Part shown: positions 3,745 to 33,320 of the stretch, one piece after another
Layout: every line of letters starts with the position of its first letter
Numbering within the stretch: the stretch's first letter is position 1
Source: an uncultured Alphaproteobacteria bacterium
Lineage (GTDB): Bacteria; Pseudomonadota; Alphaproteobacteria; Sphingomonadales; Sphingomonadaceae
DNA length: 64,000 nucleotides
NCBI GenBank assembly: GCA_963703055.1
Contig: OY969784.1
Span: 992,872-1,056,871 of the forward strand
Direction: 5' to 3'
Notes under the pieces: generated by a model
Told to the model about the DNA's origin: nothing
Database searches by the model: none
The model's input: the letters and a program-made list of their open reading frames with translations, nothing else
Program-made: the position numbers and the translations under genes

Positions 3745-5515
3745 ACGCCGCGCGGATCTTCCGAGAGCTGCGAGCCGGCCGAATGATTTCTCCGCGTTTC
3801 TGTGTCGTTCGAACCTTCAAGAGGTCCTGGCGCGACAATAGGCCAACGACCGATCGCGTCTGCGGATCGACGATGGGCACTCGCCCCGTTCCTGATTCGA
3901 CCATCATGTCCGCGACAAGTCCGCAGGGGGTCTCGGGGTATGCGACCAGGGTCGACGCGTCGGACAGTGCATCGACCAGTCGGCCGTCGAGTTCCGATCC
4001 TTCCTGGTGCCAACGAAGAGCATCGGTTCGCGAAGCAAGGCCAAGCAACCGGCCGTTCTCGTCGACCACCGGATAGGATCGGTGCTGAGCTTCCTTTCTG
4101 AAAAATTCGACCGCGTCCGAAAGGCTCATGTCTCCCGGCAATGTCGCGGGATTCGACGTCATCACTTGTCTCGCCTGGAGAAACTCGAGGGGGTCGATGG
4201 TATATTCCTGAAGAATGTGCCGTCCCCGCCGCGCAATTTTTTCGGTAAGAATAGAGCGACGCATGACAAGAACGCTGACCGCATAAGCGGTTGCTGCAGC
4301 AGCGATGGTTTCGGGTAGTGCGCCAAGGTGGTTCGTCAGCTCTGCGGCAAAAAGTGCTGCGGTCACGGGCGCTCGCATCGCTCCGCTTAATATGCCGGCC
4401 ATCGCCACCATCGCCCAGAAGCCCGGATCCCAGTGAAGCCAAAAACCAATGAGATAGCCGGCGGAACCTCCAAGGATCAGAAGCGGTGCGAGAATGCCTC
4501 CGCTTGTCCCCGACCCGAGTGCAACCAGCCAGACGATGGCCTTGACGACGAGGAGAGCGACGACGACGCGAATTGCGAGTGAACCGTTGAGCAGTTCCTG
4601 AATGCTGCCATAGCCAGCGCCAAGGACGCGCGGCTCGATCAACGCGCCAAGACCAACGACAATTCCCCCCAGAGCCGGCCACCACATCCAGTGAAGAGGC
4701 GAACGATGAAATGCGTCCTCAATCCGGTAAAGAAGCGCGGAGAGAAGCGCAGCCTCAATCCCAACGATGAGACCAAGCACCACCGCAAACCCAAGCGGAG
4801 CCAATCCTTCTGGCGTCGCTGCGGAAAACGGGAACAAGGGTCCGCTTCCCACCAGTAGCGGACGCCAGGACAGGGACACGAGCGTCGCAGTGACCACCGG
4901 AACGAAGCTTCGCGGCTTCCATTCGAACAGAAGCACTTCAAGCGCGAGCATGATCGCTGCAAGTGGGGTGCCGAAAATCCCTGTCATGCCAGCGGCAGCG
5001 CCCGCAACGAGCAGGGTTTTGCGCTCCGCTGCGCTCAGTCGAAAACGCTGCGCAAACAACGATCCGATCGCGCCGCCGGTCATGATGATCGGCCCCTCCG
5101 CTCCGAACGGGCCGCCGCTTCCGATCGAAATGGCCGAGGAAAGCGGCTTTAAGAGCGCGACCTTCAGTGAAAGCCGGCTTTCGCCGAACAGGATCGTTTC
5201 GATCGCTTCGGGAATGCCATGTCCACGGATCTTCTCGGAGCCATATTTCGCCATCAACCCGACCATCAGACCGCCGAGGACCGGAACGGCGACGGTCACA
5301 ACGCTCGGAGACACCATGGCCATGTCTGCTGCCCGATCCGAAAAACGGTAAAACCAGAAAAGGTTCGTTGCGATGGCAATGAGTTTAAGAAGAAGCCAAG
5401 CGCCAAGTGCGCCGCCGGTTCCTACTGCGACTGCCATTGCGCTGAGCAACAGCATTCGCCAGTCGGCACTATGATCTGCAAGCCGTCTTGGGCGATTGAG
5501 CGAAGTTGAAGACAT
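3719..5515 (-). CDS. ClC-family chloride channel with C-terminal CBS pair
   Basis: GSGGPFGAEGP and GIFGTPL selectivity-filter-like motifs, many TM segments, C-terminal CBS-like repeats. Start set at ATG 5515 (MSSTSLNRP). Confidence 0.85.
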   Translation of the reverse strand: MSSTSLNRPRRLADHSADWRMLLLSAMAVAVGTGGALGAWLLLKLIAIATNLFWFYRFSDRAADMAMVSPSVVTVAVPVLGGLMVGLMAKYGSEKIRGHGIPEAIETILFGESRLSLKVALLKPLSSAISIGSGGPFGAEGPIIMTGGAIGSLFAQRFRLSAAERKTLLVAGAAAGMTGIFGTPLAAIMLALEVLLFEWKPRSFVPVVTATLVSLSWRPLLVGSGPLFPFSAATPEGLAPLGFAVVLGLIVGIEAALLSALLYRIEDAFHRSPLHWMWWPALGGIVVGLGALIEPRVLGAGYGSIQELLNGSLAIRVVVALLVVKAIVWLVALGSGTSGGILAPLLILGGSAGYLIGFWLHWDPGFWAMVAMAGILSGAMRAPVTAALFAAELTNHLGALPETIAAAATAYAVSVLVMRRSILTEKIARRGRHILQEYTIDPLEFLQARQVMTSNPATLPGDMSLSDAVEFFRKEAQHRSYPVVDENGRLLGLASRTDALRWHQEGSELDGRLVDALSDASTLVAYPETPCGLVADMMVESGTGRVPIVDPQTRSVVGLLSRQDLLKVRTTQKRGEIIRPARSSRKIRAAFKNRHLDL

Positions 5516-21764: not shown

Positions 21765-22226
21765 ATGACCATTAGCTTTCAGGCCGGCGATCTCGACAGC
21801 CCTGACGTCCAGGCGCTCGTTTCCTTTCATTTCGAGGAAATGCGATCGGTATCGCCCGCCGACGCCTGTCACGTGCTTGAGTTAAAAGCCTTGCGCGAGC
21901 CCTCGCTTCTGTTCTTTTCGATGCGTGACAACGGGTCTCTCGTGGCTGTGGGAGCGCTAAAGCCGCTTGCCCCACATCATGCGGAAATCAAATCGATGCG
22001 GGCGGCTCCTTCATCTCTTCGCCGCGGAAATGGTCGGGCGATGCTTCGTCATCTTATCGCCGAAGCTAAGAAACGAGGATTTCGGCGCGTCAGTCTCGAA
22101 ACCGGCGCCAGCGCCCACTTTGCTGCGGCACTCACGCTCTACGAGAGTGAAGGATTTCATCAAACCGGTCCGTTCGCGCAATACAAAGGCACGCCGTTCA
22201 CACGCTTTTTCACCCGAGAAATTTAG
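21765..22226 (+). CDS. GNAT-family N-acetyltransferase
   Basis: RRGNGRAML (R/Q-x-x-G-x-G/A) acetyl-CoA motif. 153 aa. Confidence 0.8.
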   Translation: MTISFQAGDLDSPDVQALVSFHFEEMRSVSPADACHVLELKALREPSLLFFSMRDNGSLVAVGALKPLAPHHAEIKSMRAAPSSLRRGNGRAMLRHLIAEAKKRGFRRVSLETGASAHFAAALTLYESEGFHQTGPFAQYKGTPFTRFFTREI

Positions 22227-22353
22227 CCGCCTTGCATCCCCGCCAACCCCTTGCTAGTGCCCGCGCCAACCGGTCGGGGGCGTGCGGGTTCACCTGCTTC
22301 ACGCCCCGTTTTTCGCACCGGGGCAACATTTCCGTTTCTGGAGCTTTTCGCGC

Positions 22354-26909
<4,556 letters not shown>

Positions 26910-26912
26910 GCC

Positions 26913-27098
26913 ATGGCCGAGACGCTTCGCCTCCAGGATAGCGTCAATACGCATTGTCCGTGGTCGGGCAAGCTGGTCAGCGCCGATGCGTTGACACGGT
27001 ACAAAGGTCGCGTCGTCGGTTTTTGCACTGAGGGCTGCCGGGACAAGTTCGAAGCAGCCGTCGGAGCGTTCGACGAAAAGATAGAAGGAAAGAGCTGA
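26913..27098 (+). CDS. small YHS/TRASH-like Cys/His protein embedded in the atp operon (61 aa)
   Basis: ATG lies 3 nt after the atpD stop, and its stop overlaps the atpC ATG (TGATG). The H-C-x22-C-x3-C layout with [11 protein letters not shown] resembles the YHS/TRASH YFCSxxCxxKF. Confidence 0.6.
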
Positions 27099-27355
27099 TG
27101 GCCGATCTCCACTTCGAACTCGTGACGCCCGAGAAAATGGTCACTTCTGGTGATGTCTACATGGTCGTGATCCCGGGAACAGAAGGCGAATCCGGGATTA
27201 TGGCCGGTCATGCGCCCTACATGACGACGCTCAAGACCGGCGAAATCGCCATCTATCGGAGTCAAGGAGCGCAACCTGAGCGAATTCCGGTTGCCGGAGG
27301 TTTCGCTGAGGTCGGTGATCGCGGACTGACGGTGCTTGCCGAAACTGCAGGCTGA
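27098..27355 (+). CDS. atpC: F1 ATP synthase epsilon subunit, N-terminal beta-sandwich only (85 aa)
   Basis: [12 protein letters not shown]...[18 protein letters not shown]...L..GEI matches the epsilon N-terminal domain. It stops after LAETAG with no C-terminal helices. Confidence 0.85.
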
Positions 27356-27379
27356 TCCGACCGGCACGAGCTTTTAGGG

Positions 27380-27394
27380 TTAAGAGGCTTTTAA
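27380..27394. promoter_or_regulatory. CtrA-box-like motif TTAA-N7-TTAA
   Basis: TTAAGAGGCTTTTAA lies in the 115-bp gap between atpC and the first membrane-protein gene. Confidence 0.3.
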
Positions 27395-27470
27395 GCGCTT
27401 TTGGTAGCATGCGCGCCCGAGAGGAACGGCGGCTGATGCACTATTTCTTCGAGGATTTGTTTGGCCGGGG

Positions 27471-29412
27471 TTGCAGCGGCGACCCCGTTCTTGCGTGCTT
27501 CTTTTGCTGCTTCCCGGGTTCGGCATTGCGCAGCTCTCGATCCGCCGGGCCTGGATCCTCGAAGTGGTGCCAATCGAACTTGCTGGGGGCTCGTTCTCGC
27601 GTCCGACATTGTTGCCGGCACTCGACGCGTTTGCTGCGTTCGCTGGCTCGGTTTCGGGCGTGCCTCTTCTCCATGCACTTTGCTCGCGGCTCTGGGATTC
27701 GAACCGGCAGTTTCGGCGCTCCGGCGTGTTCCAGTCGCAATGGTGGTGGGCAGTCGCTGGATGTTTTGCCGCAGCGGCATGGGCAAATGTGGATTTCGAT
27801 TGGAATGGCCATCTTTTCCAATCCGGAATATGCATCGACAGCGTTAAACATGCTGCTGTCATCGGGGCTCTCGCGACAAAGGGCATGCCGCTCCATGATC
27901 CTTTTTTCGCGAGACCCGGAATCGCGTGGCTATTATTATTATTTCTACATCGGCCCCGGCGCTCATTCATTGGCTTGTGGCTCCCTTGATCGACAGTCGC
28001 GCGCGCATTTGCCGGCGCGACTTTCACAACCTGCTCGCATTTCCCGGCGACTGCTGATATCTTGTTGCAGAGAATGCGGCACTGATTCCCGGAGGAAACG
28101 CTGTCCCGCTTTATCAAGCCTGATTTGCCTTCTCTGCTGCCTATCGGGGTTCGATTTGCTGCCTGGGCTGTGGATCTGGGCAACGACCGGGACCTCCTTG
28201 CTCAGCTCGACTGGTGGAGCGAGGAAGTTCGTTGGGCTTTACCTCAATCCTTTGGGTACCGCACCACATAACGCGGTGATGGCGGTTTACGTCGGTGCCA
28301 TTCTGGTCAGTCGAGGCGAACGGTCCAACCTGGTGCCCCGTGCGGCATTCGCAAGTTTTGCATTCGCGACGGCTTTTGGTTGTTCGGTTTGGATCGCGGT
28401 TGCGGCCGCTCCGATCCTGACCATTTGGTGGATTAGCGAGAGCGCAAATTGGTTGGCAACGAAGGGGATGTGGGCGCTTCCGCTCGGCGGCGCTGGAGCA
28501 CTTCTTTGGGCCGTTCCGCAAATTTTCGACATCAAGTTCGGTCGGGCAGTCGAAGGATTTCCATTAGCATTGTACATGCGCCCGGTCGGTCCGGTTCGAG
28601 TGCTTCCCCATTCCGTCGGCGAATGGATCGTGCATCTAGCAGTACTTCCCGGCGGATATCTCGTCGAATTCGGCATATTTGCAATCGGCTCGGTTGCATT
28701 CCTGATGAGGGGCAGGTTCAGTGAAACCCGGTCCACACCGCTTGGGCGATTGTTACTTTTGTCAGTTCCGATCGCGCTTGTGCTCGTGACGTTCGTTCGC
28801 TCCGCAATCCTTTTCAATGATTTCGGGTGGCGCGCAATGTGGCTCGCCCAAGTTCCCGCAATTGTGTGGACCGGTTCCGTCATCAGCACGAGACGCGAAG
28901 TTCTGCGATCACCGATCTGGAGGTTTGCAGCAGCGCTTGGGCTCGTCGCTTGCGTCTGGGATGTGGCGGGCTTGAGACTTATGCGACCGAAACCTTTCCT
29001 TCCGTTCATTAATGAGGATCCGAAGGCTGACTTTGACATCCGCGGCGCATATCGCTGGGCCGATCACAACATTCCGGCAACTGTCATCATTCAACACAAT
29101 CCGACCGCAGGTCGAGCGCTGGACTTCGGGCTATACAGCGATCGCCAGGTCGCCTTGGCCGACAGCGAAGCGAGACTGTTCGGTGCGCCAGAAGCAAAGA
29201 TCGAGAGTCGGCTGAATTTGCTCATGCCGATCTTTGAACGCCCGATGCTGCAATCCGAGATTCGCGAACGTGCACGGCGGGTCGGCGTCGGAGGCCTTTT
29301 GTTGACAAGCAACGACCCTCTCTGGCGCGCTAGCGGAGGCCCTCCGTCTGGGTGGACATGCGATTATCGAGCTTCAGAAACCTGCATCATGCTTCTGGGG
29401 AAGCTTCAATGA
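27471..29412 (+). pseudogene. large polytopic membrane protein (GT-C-like), reading frame disrupted in the first third
   Basis: 27471-~27950 and 28086-28268 read as a natural-looking membrane protein in frame 3 (..WWWAVAGCFAAAAWANVDFDWNGHLF..KHAAVIGALATKGMPLHDPFF..). The confident C-terminal 380 aa is in frame 1. The span is 3n+1. The uninterrupted frame-1 ORF (27409..) is Cys/Arg/Ser-rich upstream of ~28270. Confidence 0.5.
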
Positions 29413-30008
29413 TCCACTACGTGCGCCAGGTCTTCCTTCTTTTAGGAATGATGCTTTTTGGATTCGCGGCCTATGTTGTGCTGTTCTGGATCGCTGGAAC
29501 ATCGCTGAATTCGGTCCTTTTCTATCGCGGACTTTATCTCGCACTCATCGCCGGTGTGATCACCGCCGTTGTGGCCTTCGTCATCGGAAAACGGATCGGC
29601 GACCCCTCTTTCCCTGTTGCAGCGACTGCAATCTCGCTGAGTTTCAACATCTGCTTCCTGGTCCTGCTCCCCGTGACAGTGGACCGATCCGTAAGCGTTT
29701 ACCTGCTTGCGAACATCGCATCCGAGCGCGGTACGGGAATTCTCCCGGCAGACCTGGAACGTCAATTCATCGACGGCTACGTTGTGAAGATGGGGGCAAT
29801 CAATCGTCGGATTGACGAGCAGAAAACTTCGGGAAACATCGAGATGGGTGTGGACGGAAAGGTGCACCTGACGGCGCAAGGACGCCATTTCATGGCGTTA
29901 AGTCATCTCATATCTCGAATTTTTCATACGGATCCAAGGTTCGTCGACGCTTCCGATGATAAGGTCGACCAGCACGTGCGGATCATCGCAGGGCAAAACG
30001 AAAAATGA
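29409..30008 (+). CDS. small membrane protein: 3 predicted TM segments plus a winged-helix-like C-terminal domain
   Basis: ATGA overlap with the upstream gene, GGGGAAG SD. Hydrophobic N-terminal half. The C-terminus (VSVYLLANIA..ILPADLERQF..MGAINRRIDEQKTSGNIEMGVDGKVHLTAQG) looks wHTH-like. Confidence 0.6.
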   Translation: MIHYVRQVFLLLGMMLFGFAAYVVLFWIAGTSLNSVLFYRGLYLALIAGVITAVVAFVIGKRIGDPSFPVAATAISLSFNICFLVLLPVTVDRSVSVYLLANIASERGTGILPADLERQFIDGYVVKMGAINRRIDEQKTSGNIEMGVDGKVHLTAQGRHFMALSHLISRIFHTDPRFVDASDDKVDQHVRIIAGQNEK

Positions 30009-30193
30009 ATTCGGCCCCGCGCATTGAATTGATCCCTGTGGCAGTCGTGGCCAGGCTAAGGACGGCATTCTCGTTCACTGGAAGGAATTCATCAAGAGGC
30101 AACGCCGCGACCGTTTCCGATGCGTCTGGTCCGTTGGCTGGCGAATATCGCACGCGGACGAGCCTGCAATGGCTTTCAGACGATCAGGGAATC

Positions 30194-31687
30194 ATGAAGA
30201 GGCCCGAGCTTTTCGCGATTGTGCTCGTCATTTTCGCTGCAGCGCTTCGGGTCCAAGGCACAGTCGACGCTGATGTAAGCTGGCAATTGTGGATTGCCGA
30301 GCGCTTGCATCATGGTGCTCGGCTGTATCGGGACATTATCGAAGTTAATCCTCCGTTATGGTTCTGGCTCGCCGTCCCCGTTGAGCGCATTGCCGACCTC
30401 ACTGGCATTCGTTCCGACGCCGTGATGATCGCAGCGGTCGCGTCCGCAGTAATGATTTCTTTGATCGGAACTTCGTCATTAACTGGCGGAATTGCCCAAC
30501 GAAGGCGATCAGTTTTTCTTTTGTATGCCGCCGCGATGTTGTTCGTCATGCCGTGGATGCATATTGGTCAGCGAGAACAACTCGTTCTGATCGGCGCCCT
30601 GCCCTATTCGGCGCTTATCGCGGGACGCCGAAGCGGCAACAGCATTGATCCCCGACTCGCGCTGGCAATCGGAGCCGGTGCGGCGATCGGCTTCCTCCTG
30701 AAACATTATTTCGTCATCGTTCCCGCTCTTTTCGAACTGTGGTTAGTTTCCACGAACCGCAAATCGTGGCGCATCCTTCGCCCAGAGATTATCGCCGCCG
30801 TAGCGATCGGAGTTAGCTATTGCGCAGCGATTTTCATTTGCACTCCAGACTATTTCACGACCGTCCTACCGTTGATCCGCGAGGCGTACGGCGCGACTGG
30901 GGCTCCGCACTTCATCGAGGTTTTCCAACCGCCGATCTGGATTGCGTTCCTCATCATCCTGTTCATTGCGGTTCAAGTCCGGCGAAGGGTCGTGCAATTT
31001 TCGGCACTAACGACAGCTCTGCTCATCGCCTCTCTTGGCTTTGGCGCGGCATATTTCATCCAGCACAAGGGGTGGCTGTACCATTCAATTCCCTTTGTCG
31101 GTTGCGCCGCTCTTGCGCTTGCAAGTTTGCTCGCCGAGCGACCGCTGTGCCTTCCGTCTTTGCGGATTCTCGGGCCAGTGCTCCTGTCTCTGCCACTTGT
31201 CGTTACGCTTCAGGAATCGCGTTCAAACCCTCTTCCAGGTGCGGAGTTGACTCACTCGGTCTCTGACCTATCCGCCGGTGATGGCGTTGGCTTTATCGCG
31301 ACTGAACCCGCGCTGGCATGGTCAGTGACACTTCAGCACCACCTCCGATATGCGTCTCGCTACTACGGCTTTTGGATGCTTCGAGCGATACTTCAAGGCG
31401 AGCGCAATCCGGTTCCGGATCCAAAGCTCGAGAAGCTTCGAGTGGACGTGATCCATCAAACCGTCGTTGACTTTCGCTGTATTGCGCCGCGGCGGATCAT
31501 CGTGGCGCGACCGCCTCAAAATTCGACGGATTCTACGGAATTCGATATTCTACCATTCTTCCTGAATGACCCCGAATTTGCGGCGATGTTCGCGCATTAT
31601 CGGCCTATTAAGCGGGGCGAGACCCTCGAGACCTACAACCTTGTCATCCCGCTTGGTCGACCGCGCGGATGCCGCAGCGGGGTTTAG
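30194..31687 (+). CDS. GT-C-fold-like polytopic membrane protein (ArnT/PMT-like)
   Basis: MKRPELFAIVLVIFAAALRV..VDADVSWQLWIAERLHHGARLYRDIIEVNPPLWFWL resembles the first-loop motif of ArnT/PMT-type GT-C enzymes. About 10 or more TM segments. AGGGA SD before ATG 30194. An alternative coupled start lies at 30005 (ATGA). Confidence 0.65.
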   Translation: MKRPELFAIVLVIFAAALRVQGTVDADVSWQLWIAERLHHGARLYRDIIEVNPPLWFWLAVPVERIADLTGIRSDAVMIAAVASAVMISLIGTSSLTGGIAQRRRSVFLLYAAAMLFVMPWMHIGQREQLVLIGALPYSALIAGRRSGNSIDPRLALAIGAGAAIGFLLKHYFVIVPALFELWLVSTNRKSWRILRPEIIAAVAIGVSYCAAIFICTPDYFTTVLPLIREAYGATGAPHFIEVFQPPIWIAFLIILFIAVQVRRRVVQFSALTTALLIASLGFGAAYFIQHKGWLYHSIPFVGCAALALASLLAERPLCLPSLRILGPVLLSLPLVVTLQESRSNPLPGAELTHSVSDLSAGDGVGFIATEPALAWSVTLQHHLRYASRYYGFWMLRAILQGERNPVPDPKLEKLRVDVIHQTVVDFRCIAPRRIIVARPPQNSTDSTEFDILPFFLNDPEFAAMFAHYRPIKRGETLETYNLVIPLGRPRGCRSGV

Positions 31688-31745: not shown

Positions 31746-31790
31746 CTTGGGCTACTTGCGAGAAAACCATTGTTCTGGCGGAAAAGCAGC

Positions 31791-33320
31791 ATGAGCGCAT
31801 TCGGAAAACGTGGAGGAATGGGCGGCGGGCGTCCCAATTTCGGCGTCGCAAAGCCAATGAAGGGTGGCGTTGGAGGCGGTCCAGTTCAGCCTTCGACCGA
31901 GCTTTCCGGCGGGGATCAGTTCCCACCGATCGACGAACTTACACCTTCAATGGATTCGCTGGGCGGAGATGCCGGCGCCGGCCAGATGGGGGCAATGGAT
32001 CGTCTTACTGCTCGACAAAATGCGAGCGGTGAAGCAGCGAGCAGTAGATCTGAAGGCTTTGAAGCTTCGGTCCATCGCATCAAAGAACAGGTCCTGCCGC
32101 GTCTGCTCGAGCGCGTTGATCCTGAAGCTGCGGCAACGTTAAGCAAAGATGAGCTCGCCGAGGAATTTCGACCGATCATTTCGGAAGTGCTTGCGGAACT
32201 CAAGATCACACTCAACCGGCGCGAGCAGTTCGCGCTCGAAAAGGTGCTTGTTGACGAACTTCTTGGGCTCGGACCGCTCGAGGAATTGCTTGCGGATCCT
32301 TCAATCAGCGACATCATGGTCAACGGTCCCGACCAAACCTACGTCGAACGCAAGGGCCGTCTCGAAGTCGCTCAAATCCAGTTTCGCGACGAGGAGCATC
32401 TGTTCCAGATCGCTCAGAGAATTGTCAACAAGGTTGGACGACGGATCGACCAGACAACCCCGCTCTGCGACGCTCGCCTTCAGGACGGAAGCCGTGTCAA
32501 CGTCATCGTTCCGCCTCTCTCGCTTCGCGGGACGGCGATCTCAATTCGTAAGTTTTCCGAGAAGCCAATCACGCTCGACATGATGAGAAGCTTCGGATCC
32601 ATGTCGGAGAAAATGGCGACGATTCTCAAGATTGCCGGGGCCACTCGGATGAACGTCGTGATTTCAGGAGGCACGGGCTCGGGCAAAACGACAATGCTCA
32701 ATGCGCTGTCCAAAATGATTGATCCGGGCGAACGCGTCATCACGATCGAAGATGCGGCCGAACTTCGGCTTCAGCAGCCGCATTGGCTTCCTCTCGAGAC
32801 CCGACCGGCGAACCTTGAAGGCCAGGGCGCGATCAGCATTCGCGACCTCGTGATCAACGCCCTTCGTATGAGGCCGGATCGGATCATCCTGGGCGAAATT
32901 CGTGGATCGGAATGTTTCGACCTCCTTGCGGCAATGAACACCGGTCACGACGGTTCGATGGCAACGCTTCACTCCAACTCTCCTCGCGAGTGTCTCGCGA
33001 GAATGGAGAACATGGTGATGATGAGCGACATCAAGATCCCAAAGGAAGCAATCAGTCGACAAATCGCGGACTCGGTCGATCTCATCGTCCAGGTGAAGCG
33101 TCTGAGGGACGGTTCAAGGCGTACAACGAACATCACCGAAGTCATCGGGATGGAAGGCGAAGTGATCGTCACTCAAGAGCTGTTCAAGTTCGAGTATCTC
33201 GACGAAACGCCTGACGGAAAAATCCTCGGCGAATATCGCTGCATGGGACTAAGGCCTTATACGCTCGAAAAGGCGAAGCAATTTGGCTTCGACCAGCCCT
33301 ATCTGGAGGCTTGTCTCTAA
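31791..33320 (+). CDS. cpaF: CpaF/TadA-family secretion ATPase (orphan)
   Basis: Gly-rich disordered N-terminus, VNGPDQTYVERKGRL, Walker A GGTGSGKTT, RPDRIILGEIRG, GHDGSMATLH. Confidence 0.85.
   Translation: MSAFGKRGGMGGGRPNFGVAKPMKGGVGGGPVQPSTELSGGDQFPPIDELTPSMDSLGGDAGAGQMGAMDRLTARQNASGEAASSRSEGFEASVHRIKEQVLPRLLERVDPEAAATLSKDELAEEFRPIISEVLAELKITLNRREQFALEKVLVDELLGLGPLEELLADPSISDIMVNGPDQTYVERKGRLEVAQIQFRDEEHLFQIAQRIVNKVGRRIDQTTPLCDARLQDGSRVNVIVPPLSLRGTAISIRKFSEKPITLDMMRSFGSMSEKMATILKIAGATRMNVVISGGTGSGKTTMLNALSKMIDPGERVITIEDAAELRLQQPHWLPLETRPANLEGQGAISIRDLVINALRMRPDRIILGEIRGSECFDLLAAMNTGHDGSMATLHSNSPRECLARMENMVMMSDIKIPKEAISRQIADSVDLIVQVKRLRDGSRRTTNITEVIGMEGEVIVTQELFKFEYLDETPDGKILGEYRCMGLRPYTLEKAKQFGFDQPYLEACL

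Follow-up and report, generated by a model that had tools for sequence, protein, structure and literature searches.

A conserved YHS/TRASH-like mini-protein gene between atpD and atpC in F1 operons of Alphaproteobacteria

The stretch of DNA analysed here, referred to as the window, comprises 64,000 nucleotides of contig OY969784.1 (positions 992,872 to 1,056,871 of the forward strand) from an uncultured alphaproteobacterium of the Sphingomonadaceae. It carries an F1 ATP synthase operon in which an additional open reading frame (ORF) of 61 codons, named X in the following (26913-27098, + strand, product of 61 amino acids), is lodged between atpD and atpC. The coordinates and the peptide that an initial annotation had read from the sequence were all exact when we reread the window. 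The locus comprises the following genes and features:

22282-22909, + strand: atpH (delta/OSCP), which opens the F1 operon and is split over two frames in this assembly
22918-24447, + strand: atpA (F1 alpha), with Pfam ATP-synt_ab_N, ATP-synt_ab and ATP-synt_ab_C
24448-25350, + strand: atpG (F1 gamma), Pfam ATP-synt, 318 bits
25377-26909, + strand: atpD (F1 beta), Pfam ATP-synt_ab family
26907-26915, + strand: atpD stop codon TGA (26907-26909), 3-nt spacer and X start codon ATG (26913), proposed termination-reinitiation junction
26913-27098, + strand: X, gene of a YHS/TRASH-like mini-protein (ORF, Pfam YHS, homologues, dN/dS, structure model)
26955-26966, + strand: codons C15-P16-W17-S18, predicted first metal knuckle, with the invariant Cys of ligand position 1 and the invariant Ser of position 2
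27024-27038, + strand: codons C38-T39-E40-G41-C42, second knuckle (C-x3-C) and start of the helix, C38 and C42 being invariant in both alignments described below
27084-27095, + strand: GAAGGAAAGAGC, Shine-Dalgarno region of atpC, encoded by the final X codons (E-G-K-S)
27096-27100, + strand: TGATG, in which the X stop codon TGA (27096-27098) overlaps the atpC start codon ATG (27098-27100), as read from the sequence
27098-27355, + strand: atpC (F1 epsilon), short, 85 aa, beta-sandwich domain only (Pfam ATP-synt_DE_N, residues 4-84)

The atpD gene of the window is 75-95% identical to that of at least 60 related loci, and atpC scores 127 bits against the NCBIfam short-epsilon model NF009983 (88 aa, cut-off 106). 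The base composition of X is native, with a GC content at third codon positions of 0.68 versus 0.69 for atpD, and no second copy of the gene was found in the window. A search with the single X sequence recovered 165 homologous protein clusters, the best 120 of which had E-values between 5e-33 and 2e-16 and lengths of 48-105 residues, mostly 60-75; a profile of the family matched 5270 clusters, as well as 1527 representative clusters of an exhaustive library, and a genome scan found homologues in at least 593 species genomes. When X of the window was compared to at least 30 relatives, pN was about 0.22 and pS was saturated at 0.55-0.78, giving dN/dS values of approximately 0.1-0.3. A chance ORF is excluded by the homology and dN/dS values, and X is almost certainly a real gene. 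Identity within the Sphingomonadales amounts to 74% for X and 76% for epsilon's N-terminal domain, and between orders to 57-72% for X and 49-56% for the epsilon domain. X thus appears to evolve about as slowly as a core F1 subunit. Between orders it is at least as conserved as the epsilon N-terminal domain, a degree of constraint that one would expect if X had a conserved partner.

We inspected the genomic context of the best 80 of the at least 593 matches of the genome scan, the complete context set consisting of 85 fetched loci and the window, i.e., 86 loci. The arrangement atpD-X-atpC occurs in 61 of these 86 loci, the ORF and its frame being conserved at the junction, which was the point on which the initial annotation had staked its proposal. 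Within the Sphingomonadales it is found in Sphingomonas, Sphingomicrobium, Allosphingosinicella, Sphingosinicella, Erythrobacter and Porphyrobacter, and outside this order in Aquisalinus (Parvularculales), Alkalicaulis and Glycocaulis (Maricaulales) and Aureimonas (Hyphomicrobiales). Three further divergent family members, picked blind to their context (L093-L095), also lie between atpD and atpC; their epsilons share only 38-55% identity, over most of their length, with any other epsilon of the set, and they therefore count as three further lineages. In Brevundimonas aveniformis, X directly follows atpC with a gap of at most 77 nt.

Statistics on the junctions were drawn from 51 well-resolved atp-linked loci. 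In 43 of these, the distance between atpD stop and X start is -1 to +8 nt; across all 51, X starts with ATG (28), TTG (13), GTG (7) or CTG (3), and in 30 of the 51, the X stop and the atpC ATG share one base. A motif attgaaggcaaggaataATG recurs in the atp-linked loci, where the I-E-G-K codons supply the Shine-Dalgarno sequence of atpC. No promoter-like site was found in a scan of positions 22000-27800, terminator-like sites in the same interval did not rise above shuffled sequences and were absent from both X junctions, and no Rfam element was found between 20000 and 30000. The initial annotation had concluded that X must be co-transcribed with its neighbours and is probably translationally coupled to them, which agrees well with an overlap and an embedded Shine-Dalgarno sequence kept in dozens of relatives and with junctions free of promoter- or terminator-like sites. 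The close stop/start spacing on both sides of X reads as a signature of termination-reinitiation coupling, and the choice of start codons suggests a reinitiation that would be tolerant of the start codon. Non-ATG starts characterize nearly half of the atp-linked genes (e.g., L008, L010, L012, L031, L033, L037, L053 and L069). A few loci have no standard start codon at the conserved N-terminus of X, and in L033 the gene continues in frame directly after the TGA-TAA of atpD.

The only consistent Pfam match of X is YHS (PF04945), to which the protein of the window aligns with 25.8 bits (E-value 1.1e-5), below the gathering threshold of 30.3 bits; 29 of 32 aligned family members match the same model (E-value of at most 0.01, best 2.1e-6), likewise below threshold, and the TRASH model matches faintly. 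Relatives that the X profile detects within multi-domain proteins do exceed the YHS cut-off (44.9 bits for P0323, 93 bits over five copies for P0217). The assignment to a YHS/TRASH-like class made in the initial annotation is thus borne out as far as the sole consistent match is concerned, with the reservation that the score stays below the gathering threshold. We therefore regard X as what appears to be a divergent variant of the YHS/TRASH class, a sister group rather than a scored member. Searches against NCBIfam, PADLOC and PHROGs gave no meaningful match, and a search of PDB sequences with the family profile returned only noise (E-values 1.8 and 9.3). A confident AlphaFold2 model built from the family alignment (mean predicted local distance difference test score of 85.5) displays an N-terminal knuckle, a beta-hairpin spanning residues 23-37 (strands 23-30 and 33-37), and a helix at residues 40-57, an amphipathic C-terminal helix of 18 residues, with C38 and C42 placed where hairpin meets helix. 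A Foldseek search with this model listed ribosomal protein L24e, hydroxylase subunits of phenol/toluene monooxygenases and the TRASH domain of ZMYM5 as top PDB matches, the relatives one would expect, but at E-values of 0.4-1.6 that are not significant. We consider it quite likely that X adopts a YHS-type fold.

Conserved residues were examined in a cross-order alignment of 32 sequences and in a paired alignment of Sphingomonadales. Seventeen positions are invariant across orders (N12, C15, P16, W17, S18, G19, L27, Y30, G36, F37, C38, G41, C42, D44, K45, F46 and A49); the three cysteines and the C-P-W-S-G knuckle are also invariant in the Sphingomonadales alignment, where G41 is at least 90% conserved. 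Of the H14-C15...C38-x3-C42 layout put forward initially, C15...C38-x3-C42 is conserved and accompanied by an invariant S18, but residue 14 varies between T, V, H, R and L, so that the pairing H14-C15 is not kept. With ligand positions numbered as in a published analysis of these domains (PMC4626032), in which TRASH has four Cys and YHS has Asp-x2-Cys...Cys-x3-Cys, the pattern of X becomes C15-x2-S18...C38-x3-C42, with an invariant Cys at positions 1, 3 and 4 and an invariant Ser at position 2. X would hence offer three sulfur and one oxygen ligands, a count equal to that of YHS, with the oxygen donor being a Ser located elsewhere in the pattern instead of an Asp. The C-terminal YHS domain of a Mycobacterium phlei adenylyl cyclase behaves as a copper sensor (PMC4626032), and we count the parallel between its Asp and three Cys and the three Cys plus one oxygen donor of X in favor of the domain class. 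Binding of a metal by X is, in our estimate, somewhat more probable than its absence. X of the window departs from residues that are nearly invariant in the family at four positions (C10S, P21L, S26A, N39T). All other atp-linked relatives compared have Asn at position 39, and a metagenomic relative that is 97% identical (P0001) shares three of the four changes while retaining P21.

The module also occurs outside stand-alone proteins. X-type domains are fused to GNAT (four cases), DinB-family (two cases, P0332 and P0357), isochorismatase, lumazine-binding and GST_C (glutathione S-transferase C-terminal) domains. It forms four to seven C-terminal repeats of large, planctomycete-type proteins with PSCyt1 and LRR domains, whose first motif reads C-P-V-S-G. 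These repeat proteins and tandem relatives (P0217, P0323, P0339 and P0121-P0127; loci L086-L089) share the pattern C-P-x-S-G...F-C-[CN]-x-x-C and lie in contexts that do not look alphaproteobacterial; position 39 is a Cys there (FCC), by which a set of four Cys is restored. The two-domain tandem relatives P0121-P0127 were considered as a clue to function and set aside, their contexts (GFO_IDH_MocA and dockerin/LRR genes) being unrelated.

We tentatively interpret X as a metal- or thiol-binding mini-protein that is translationally coupled with F1 and acts as an accessory factor of the ATP synthase. X would be a small cytoplasmic protein of the zinc-knuckle class, in which a single knuckle is combined with a beta-hairpin and a helix at the C-terminus. 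Ribosomes ending beta would re-initiate on X, as we propose because of the short distance between the atpD stop and the X start and of the frequent use of TTG, GTG or CTG, and those ending X would re-initiate on epsilon via the TGATG overlap, aided by the ribosome-binding site within the last X codons. Such chained re-initiation would lead to X being produced together with the F1 subunits. The protein would most probably use its thiols or bind Cu+ or Zn2+ as a soft metal ion, and would then help the ATP synthase of Alphaproteobacteria as a supernumerary assembly or regulation factor with a status like that of zeta or AtpI, and not as a substitute for the absent C-terminal helices of epsilon. 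The reality of the gene, its domain class, the coupled architecture and the deeply conserved position are what the data show; the metal or thiol chemistry, like any contact between X and F1, is what we infer, and a function tied to the ATP synthase seems possible to us, if short of probable. The retention of X in the atp operon across at least four orders and three further lineages argues for this interpretation, as does the precedent of atpI and atpZ, non-subunit genes within atp operons that proved to serve the enzyme.

Several observations weigh against it. In 21 Hyphomicrobiales loci, X lies immediately upstream of ffh-rpsP-rimM-trmD-rplS, e.g., in Microvirga (gap of 2 nt), Methylobacterium, Enterovirga, Rhodoligotrophos, Tepidamorphus, Saliniramus, Beijerinckiaceae and Xanthobacteraceae, which constitutes a second conserved neighbourhood, equally tight. 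Single loci have X after a glutathione S-transferase (GST) gene (L078), after an HNH gene or before a SprT-like gene, and in Brevundimonas abyssalis (L076) it overlaps the end of an OsmC-like gene. The core residues of the cross-order alignment are the same in all contexts and did not change upon relocation to ffh or elsewhere. The domain is promiscuous, with many fusions and up to seven repeats in large proteins, and no natural fusion of X with epsilon was seen among the best 120 of 3850 matches to a concatenated X-epsilon query. Not even at E-values up to 10 did X give a Pfam or NCBIfam match to the C-terminal domain of epsilon, zeta/DUF1476, IF1, mitochondrial epsilon or AtpI. With the ribosome-binding site of epsilon written inside X, positional inertia alone could retain the gene, and we know of no metal requirement of alphaproteobacterial F1. 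The ffh linkage holds for most Hyphomicrobiales; in these loci (L004, L026, L042, L062, L067, L071, L079-L083, L092 and others), X is the first gene of the operon and often ends 2 nt before ffh.

The main competing explanation is one that we consider almost as possible: X could be a general housekeeping metal/thiol mini-protein, such as a protein that buffers or chaperones Cu(I)/Zn, or a carrier that works by thiol redox chemistry or is linked to glutathione, whose target is not the ATP synthase and whose gene rides in strong constitutive operons (atp or ffh, depending on the order) for want of a promoter of its own. A neighbour-joining tree of X follows taxonomy, with the atp-linked Aureimonas copy nesting among ffh-linked Hyphomicrobiales copies, and therefore points to one orthologous family whose gene moved rather than to two paralogues; this family keeps an identical core whether it resides in the atp operon, in the ffh operon or elsewhere, and even the two Brevundimonas species differ in the placement of X (after atpC versus after the OsmC-like gene). 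The main hint is the recurrence of partners related to thiols and detoxification, namely GST (L078, P0335), OsmC (L076), DinB-family (P0332, P0357) and GNAT proteins. YHS modules elsewhere act as portable metal sensors (PMC4626032). This explanation has to contend with the slow, core-subunit-like evolution of X and its long-lasting position in the atp operon across orders and lineages, and the ffh linkage looks like a single relocation in one subclade of Hyphomicrobiales rather than frequent mobility. A role as an accessory factor of the ATP synthase can also be extended further, to X being an unrecognised supernumerary component or an assembly or regulatory factor of F1 that would sense metal or redox state, be stoichiometric with beta and epsilon, and be ancestral to much of the Alphaproteobacteria; we deem this wider version rather unlikely. 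Such a component would have escaped notice since, to our knowledge, structural work on alphaproteobacterial ATP synthases is limited to that of Paracoccus, whose atpHAGDC operon was described without X.

The two dominant contexts of X, within the F1 operon and just upstream of ffh, could also be seen as reflecting one function in the assembly of membrane complexes, with X linking membrane-protein targeting by the signal recognition particle (SRP) to ATP synthase biogenesis. In Firmicutes, the gene of a small protein that modulates SRP, YlxM, lies upstream of ffh, and in Streptococcus mutans F-ATPase function is impaired by SRP mutations. We nevertheless find this improbable, as X resembles no component of SRP or of an insertase in sequence or structure, is soluble, and has F1 and not Fo as operon partner. 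The case is built on two neighbourhoods only.

The suggestion of the initial annotation that X relates to the truncated epsilon, read here as a replacement of its missing regulatory C-terminal helices, had some appeal, given that X is always accompanied by an epsilon of 85-90 aa in the Sphingomonadales and ends in an amphipathic helix. It fails, since seven independent lineages (Aquisalinus, Alkalicaulis, Glycocaulis, Aureimonas and L093-L095) have X between atpD and an atpC gene whose epsilon product is of canonical length, with 127-136 aa. Moreover, X has no homology to the C-terminal domain of epsilon, and alphaproteobacterial epsilons are reported to be generally non-inhibitory and often truncated, the inhibitor being zeta (PMC9317440). 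The idea is thus largely refuted and very improbable. X was also considered, on account of its size and position, as a homologue of the mitochondrial epsilon (ATP5E/Atp15), for which neither Pfam nor Foldseek gave a signal. An in-frame X-epsilon fusion of 148 aa in a metagenome-assembled genome (L066, positions 4001-4447) differs from its relative L069 by one extra T in aagaagtTAATG, and is more likely an assembly indel than a real fusion.

We give even less credit to the possibility that the X ORF matters only for translation, as a spacer or attenuator by which the ratio of beta to epsilon is set, and encodes a functionless peptide. Its weak starts (23 of the 51 loci) and the overlaps on both sides would indeed reduce the ribosome flux to atpC, but the amino acids of X are under strong purifying selection, as also manifested by the seventeen residues invariant across orders, and the protein is likewise conserved at loci other than the atp operon.

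That X is a glutathione S-transferase, the name attached to NCBI and UniRef records of 61-71 aa family members (WP_342643711.1, WP_091130277.1 / A0A1G5DR48, HEU5481691.1 and others), is, just as a chance ORF, practically out of the question, the protein having 61 residues without any Pfam match to GST_N or GST_C or any NCBIfam model match, and GST being found only as a neighbour (L078) or fusion partner (P0335). The proteins named in this way include P0147, P0094, P0083 and members of their clusters, in which no GST domain is present; names given by JGI are "YHS domain-containing" or "hypothetical". Relatives that are adjacent or fused to GST are the probable source from which the name spread. 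P0335 (324 aa), which has a Lys-rich N-terminal region and whose X module (C-P-W-S-S-K) closely precedes a weak GST_C match, is a possible origin of the name and a possible hint of a glutathione link.

Two other peculiarities of the locus concern the flanks of the operon. The OSCP profile of atpH is distributed over two ORFs, positions 1-47 matching ORF 22282-22584 and positions 35-172 matching ORF 22448-22909, with the frame shift located near 22490-22505 (ACCGAATTCGAAAGAACTCGACGAG); this is either a homopolymer assembly indel of 1 nt or a true frameshift in an essential gene. On the 3' side of atpC, three consecutive + strand ORFs (27409-29412, 29352-30008 and 30005-31687) have no Pfam match. 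The relatives L001-L003 carry a PAP2_3 gene at this place, followed by a T2SSE ATPase gene, which in the window comes after the three ORFs (31770-33320).

The F1 operon (delta-alpha-gamma-beta-epsilon) belongs to the most invariant gene arrangements of bacteria, and no bacterial ATP synthase is closer to that of mitochondria than the alphaproteobacterial one. Our literature search, made within one searchable library, returned nothing that describes a gene between atpD and atpC or that links YHS proteins to the ATP synthase; the X family is a distinct and very widespread YHS subfamily with a conserved, apparently unreported place in the F1 operon. Alphaproteobacteria have already yielded one unexpected lineage-specific regulator, zeta, and X is a candidate for a second one that is concrete and cheap to test, because it is an extra cistron as slow as a core subunit, chained between beta and epsilon and kept across several orders. 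If this holds true, X possibly couples assembly or activity of the ATP synthase to the copper, zinc or thiol status of the cell. Should X turn out to handle metals or thiols in general, the analysis still defines a YHS subfamily that is large and uncharacterised (C-x2-S...C-x3-C, more than 5000 clusters), a widespread misannotation as glutathione S-transferase is corrected, and the appealing idea that X compensates for a truncated epsilon is removed as wrong.

Among known systems, X is best compared to YHS (PF04945), with which it shares a length of about 45-50 residues, the order of elements, a second half of the form ...G-x-x-Y/V-x-F-C-x-x-x-C-x-x-K-F... and the combination of three Cys with one oxygen-donor residue at the four ligand positions. 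It differs at positions 1 and 2, where the Asp and Cys of YHS (D-x2-C) are replaced by Cys and Ser (C-P-W-S-G), in its additional invariant residues N12, W17, Y30, D44 and K45, in its score below the Pfam cut-off, and in being a protein by itself and not part of an ATPase, a cyclase or a monooxygenase. With TRASH, the archaeal-eukaryotic ribosomal protein L24e and MYM (FCS) zinc fingers, it has in common the predicted knuckle-hairpin-helix fold and the F-C motif before the second knuckle, the best Foldseek chains being 8br8_LX, 7f5s_LW and 7qiw_Y (L24e) and 2das (ZMYM5 TRASH), none of them significant. TRASH, however, has four Cys (C-x2-C...C-x3-C) and X three, and, unlike an rRNA-binding protein, X has a neutral charge balance, with nine basic and nine acidic residues counted from the sequence.

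As for partners of the ATP synthase, zeta (DUF1476) shows that Alphaproteobacteria have lineage-specific ones (PMC9317440). Like zeta, X is small and mainly restricted to Alphaproteobacteria, and would likewise be a supernumerary F1 factor; the two are unrelated in sequence, and zeta is encoded outside atp operons, with its binding and inhibition demonstrated, whereas X is known by its operon position only. AtpI and AtpZ, which serve the assembly of the enzyme or its supply with metal (Mg2+), are, like X, encoded by additional cistrons of an atp operon that is invariant otherwise. They are membrane proteins encoded at the 5' end of the Fo genes, in contrast to the soluble, Cys-rich X between beta and epsilon, which has no homology to them. 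An extra reading frame amid the F1 genes may have been met before in this class, as Tybulewicz, Falk and Walker reportedly described in 1984 an unidentified ORF between gamma and beta in the atp operon of Rhodobacter (Rhodopseudomonas) blasticus.

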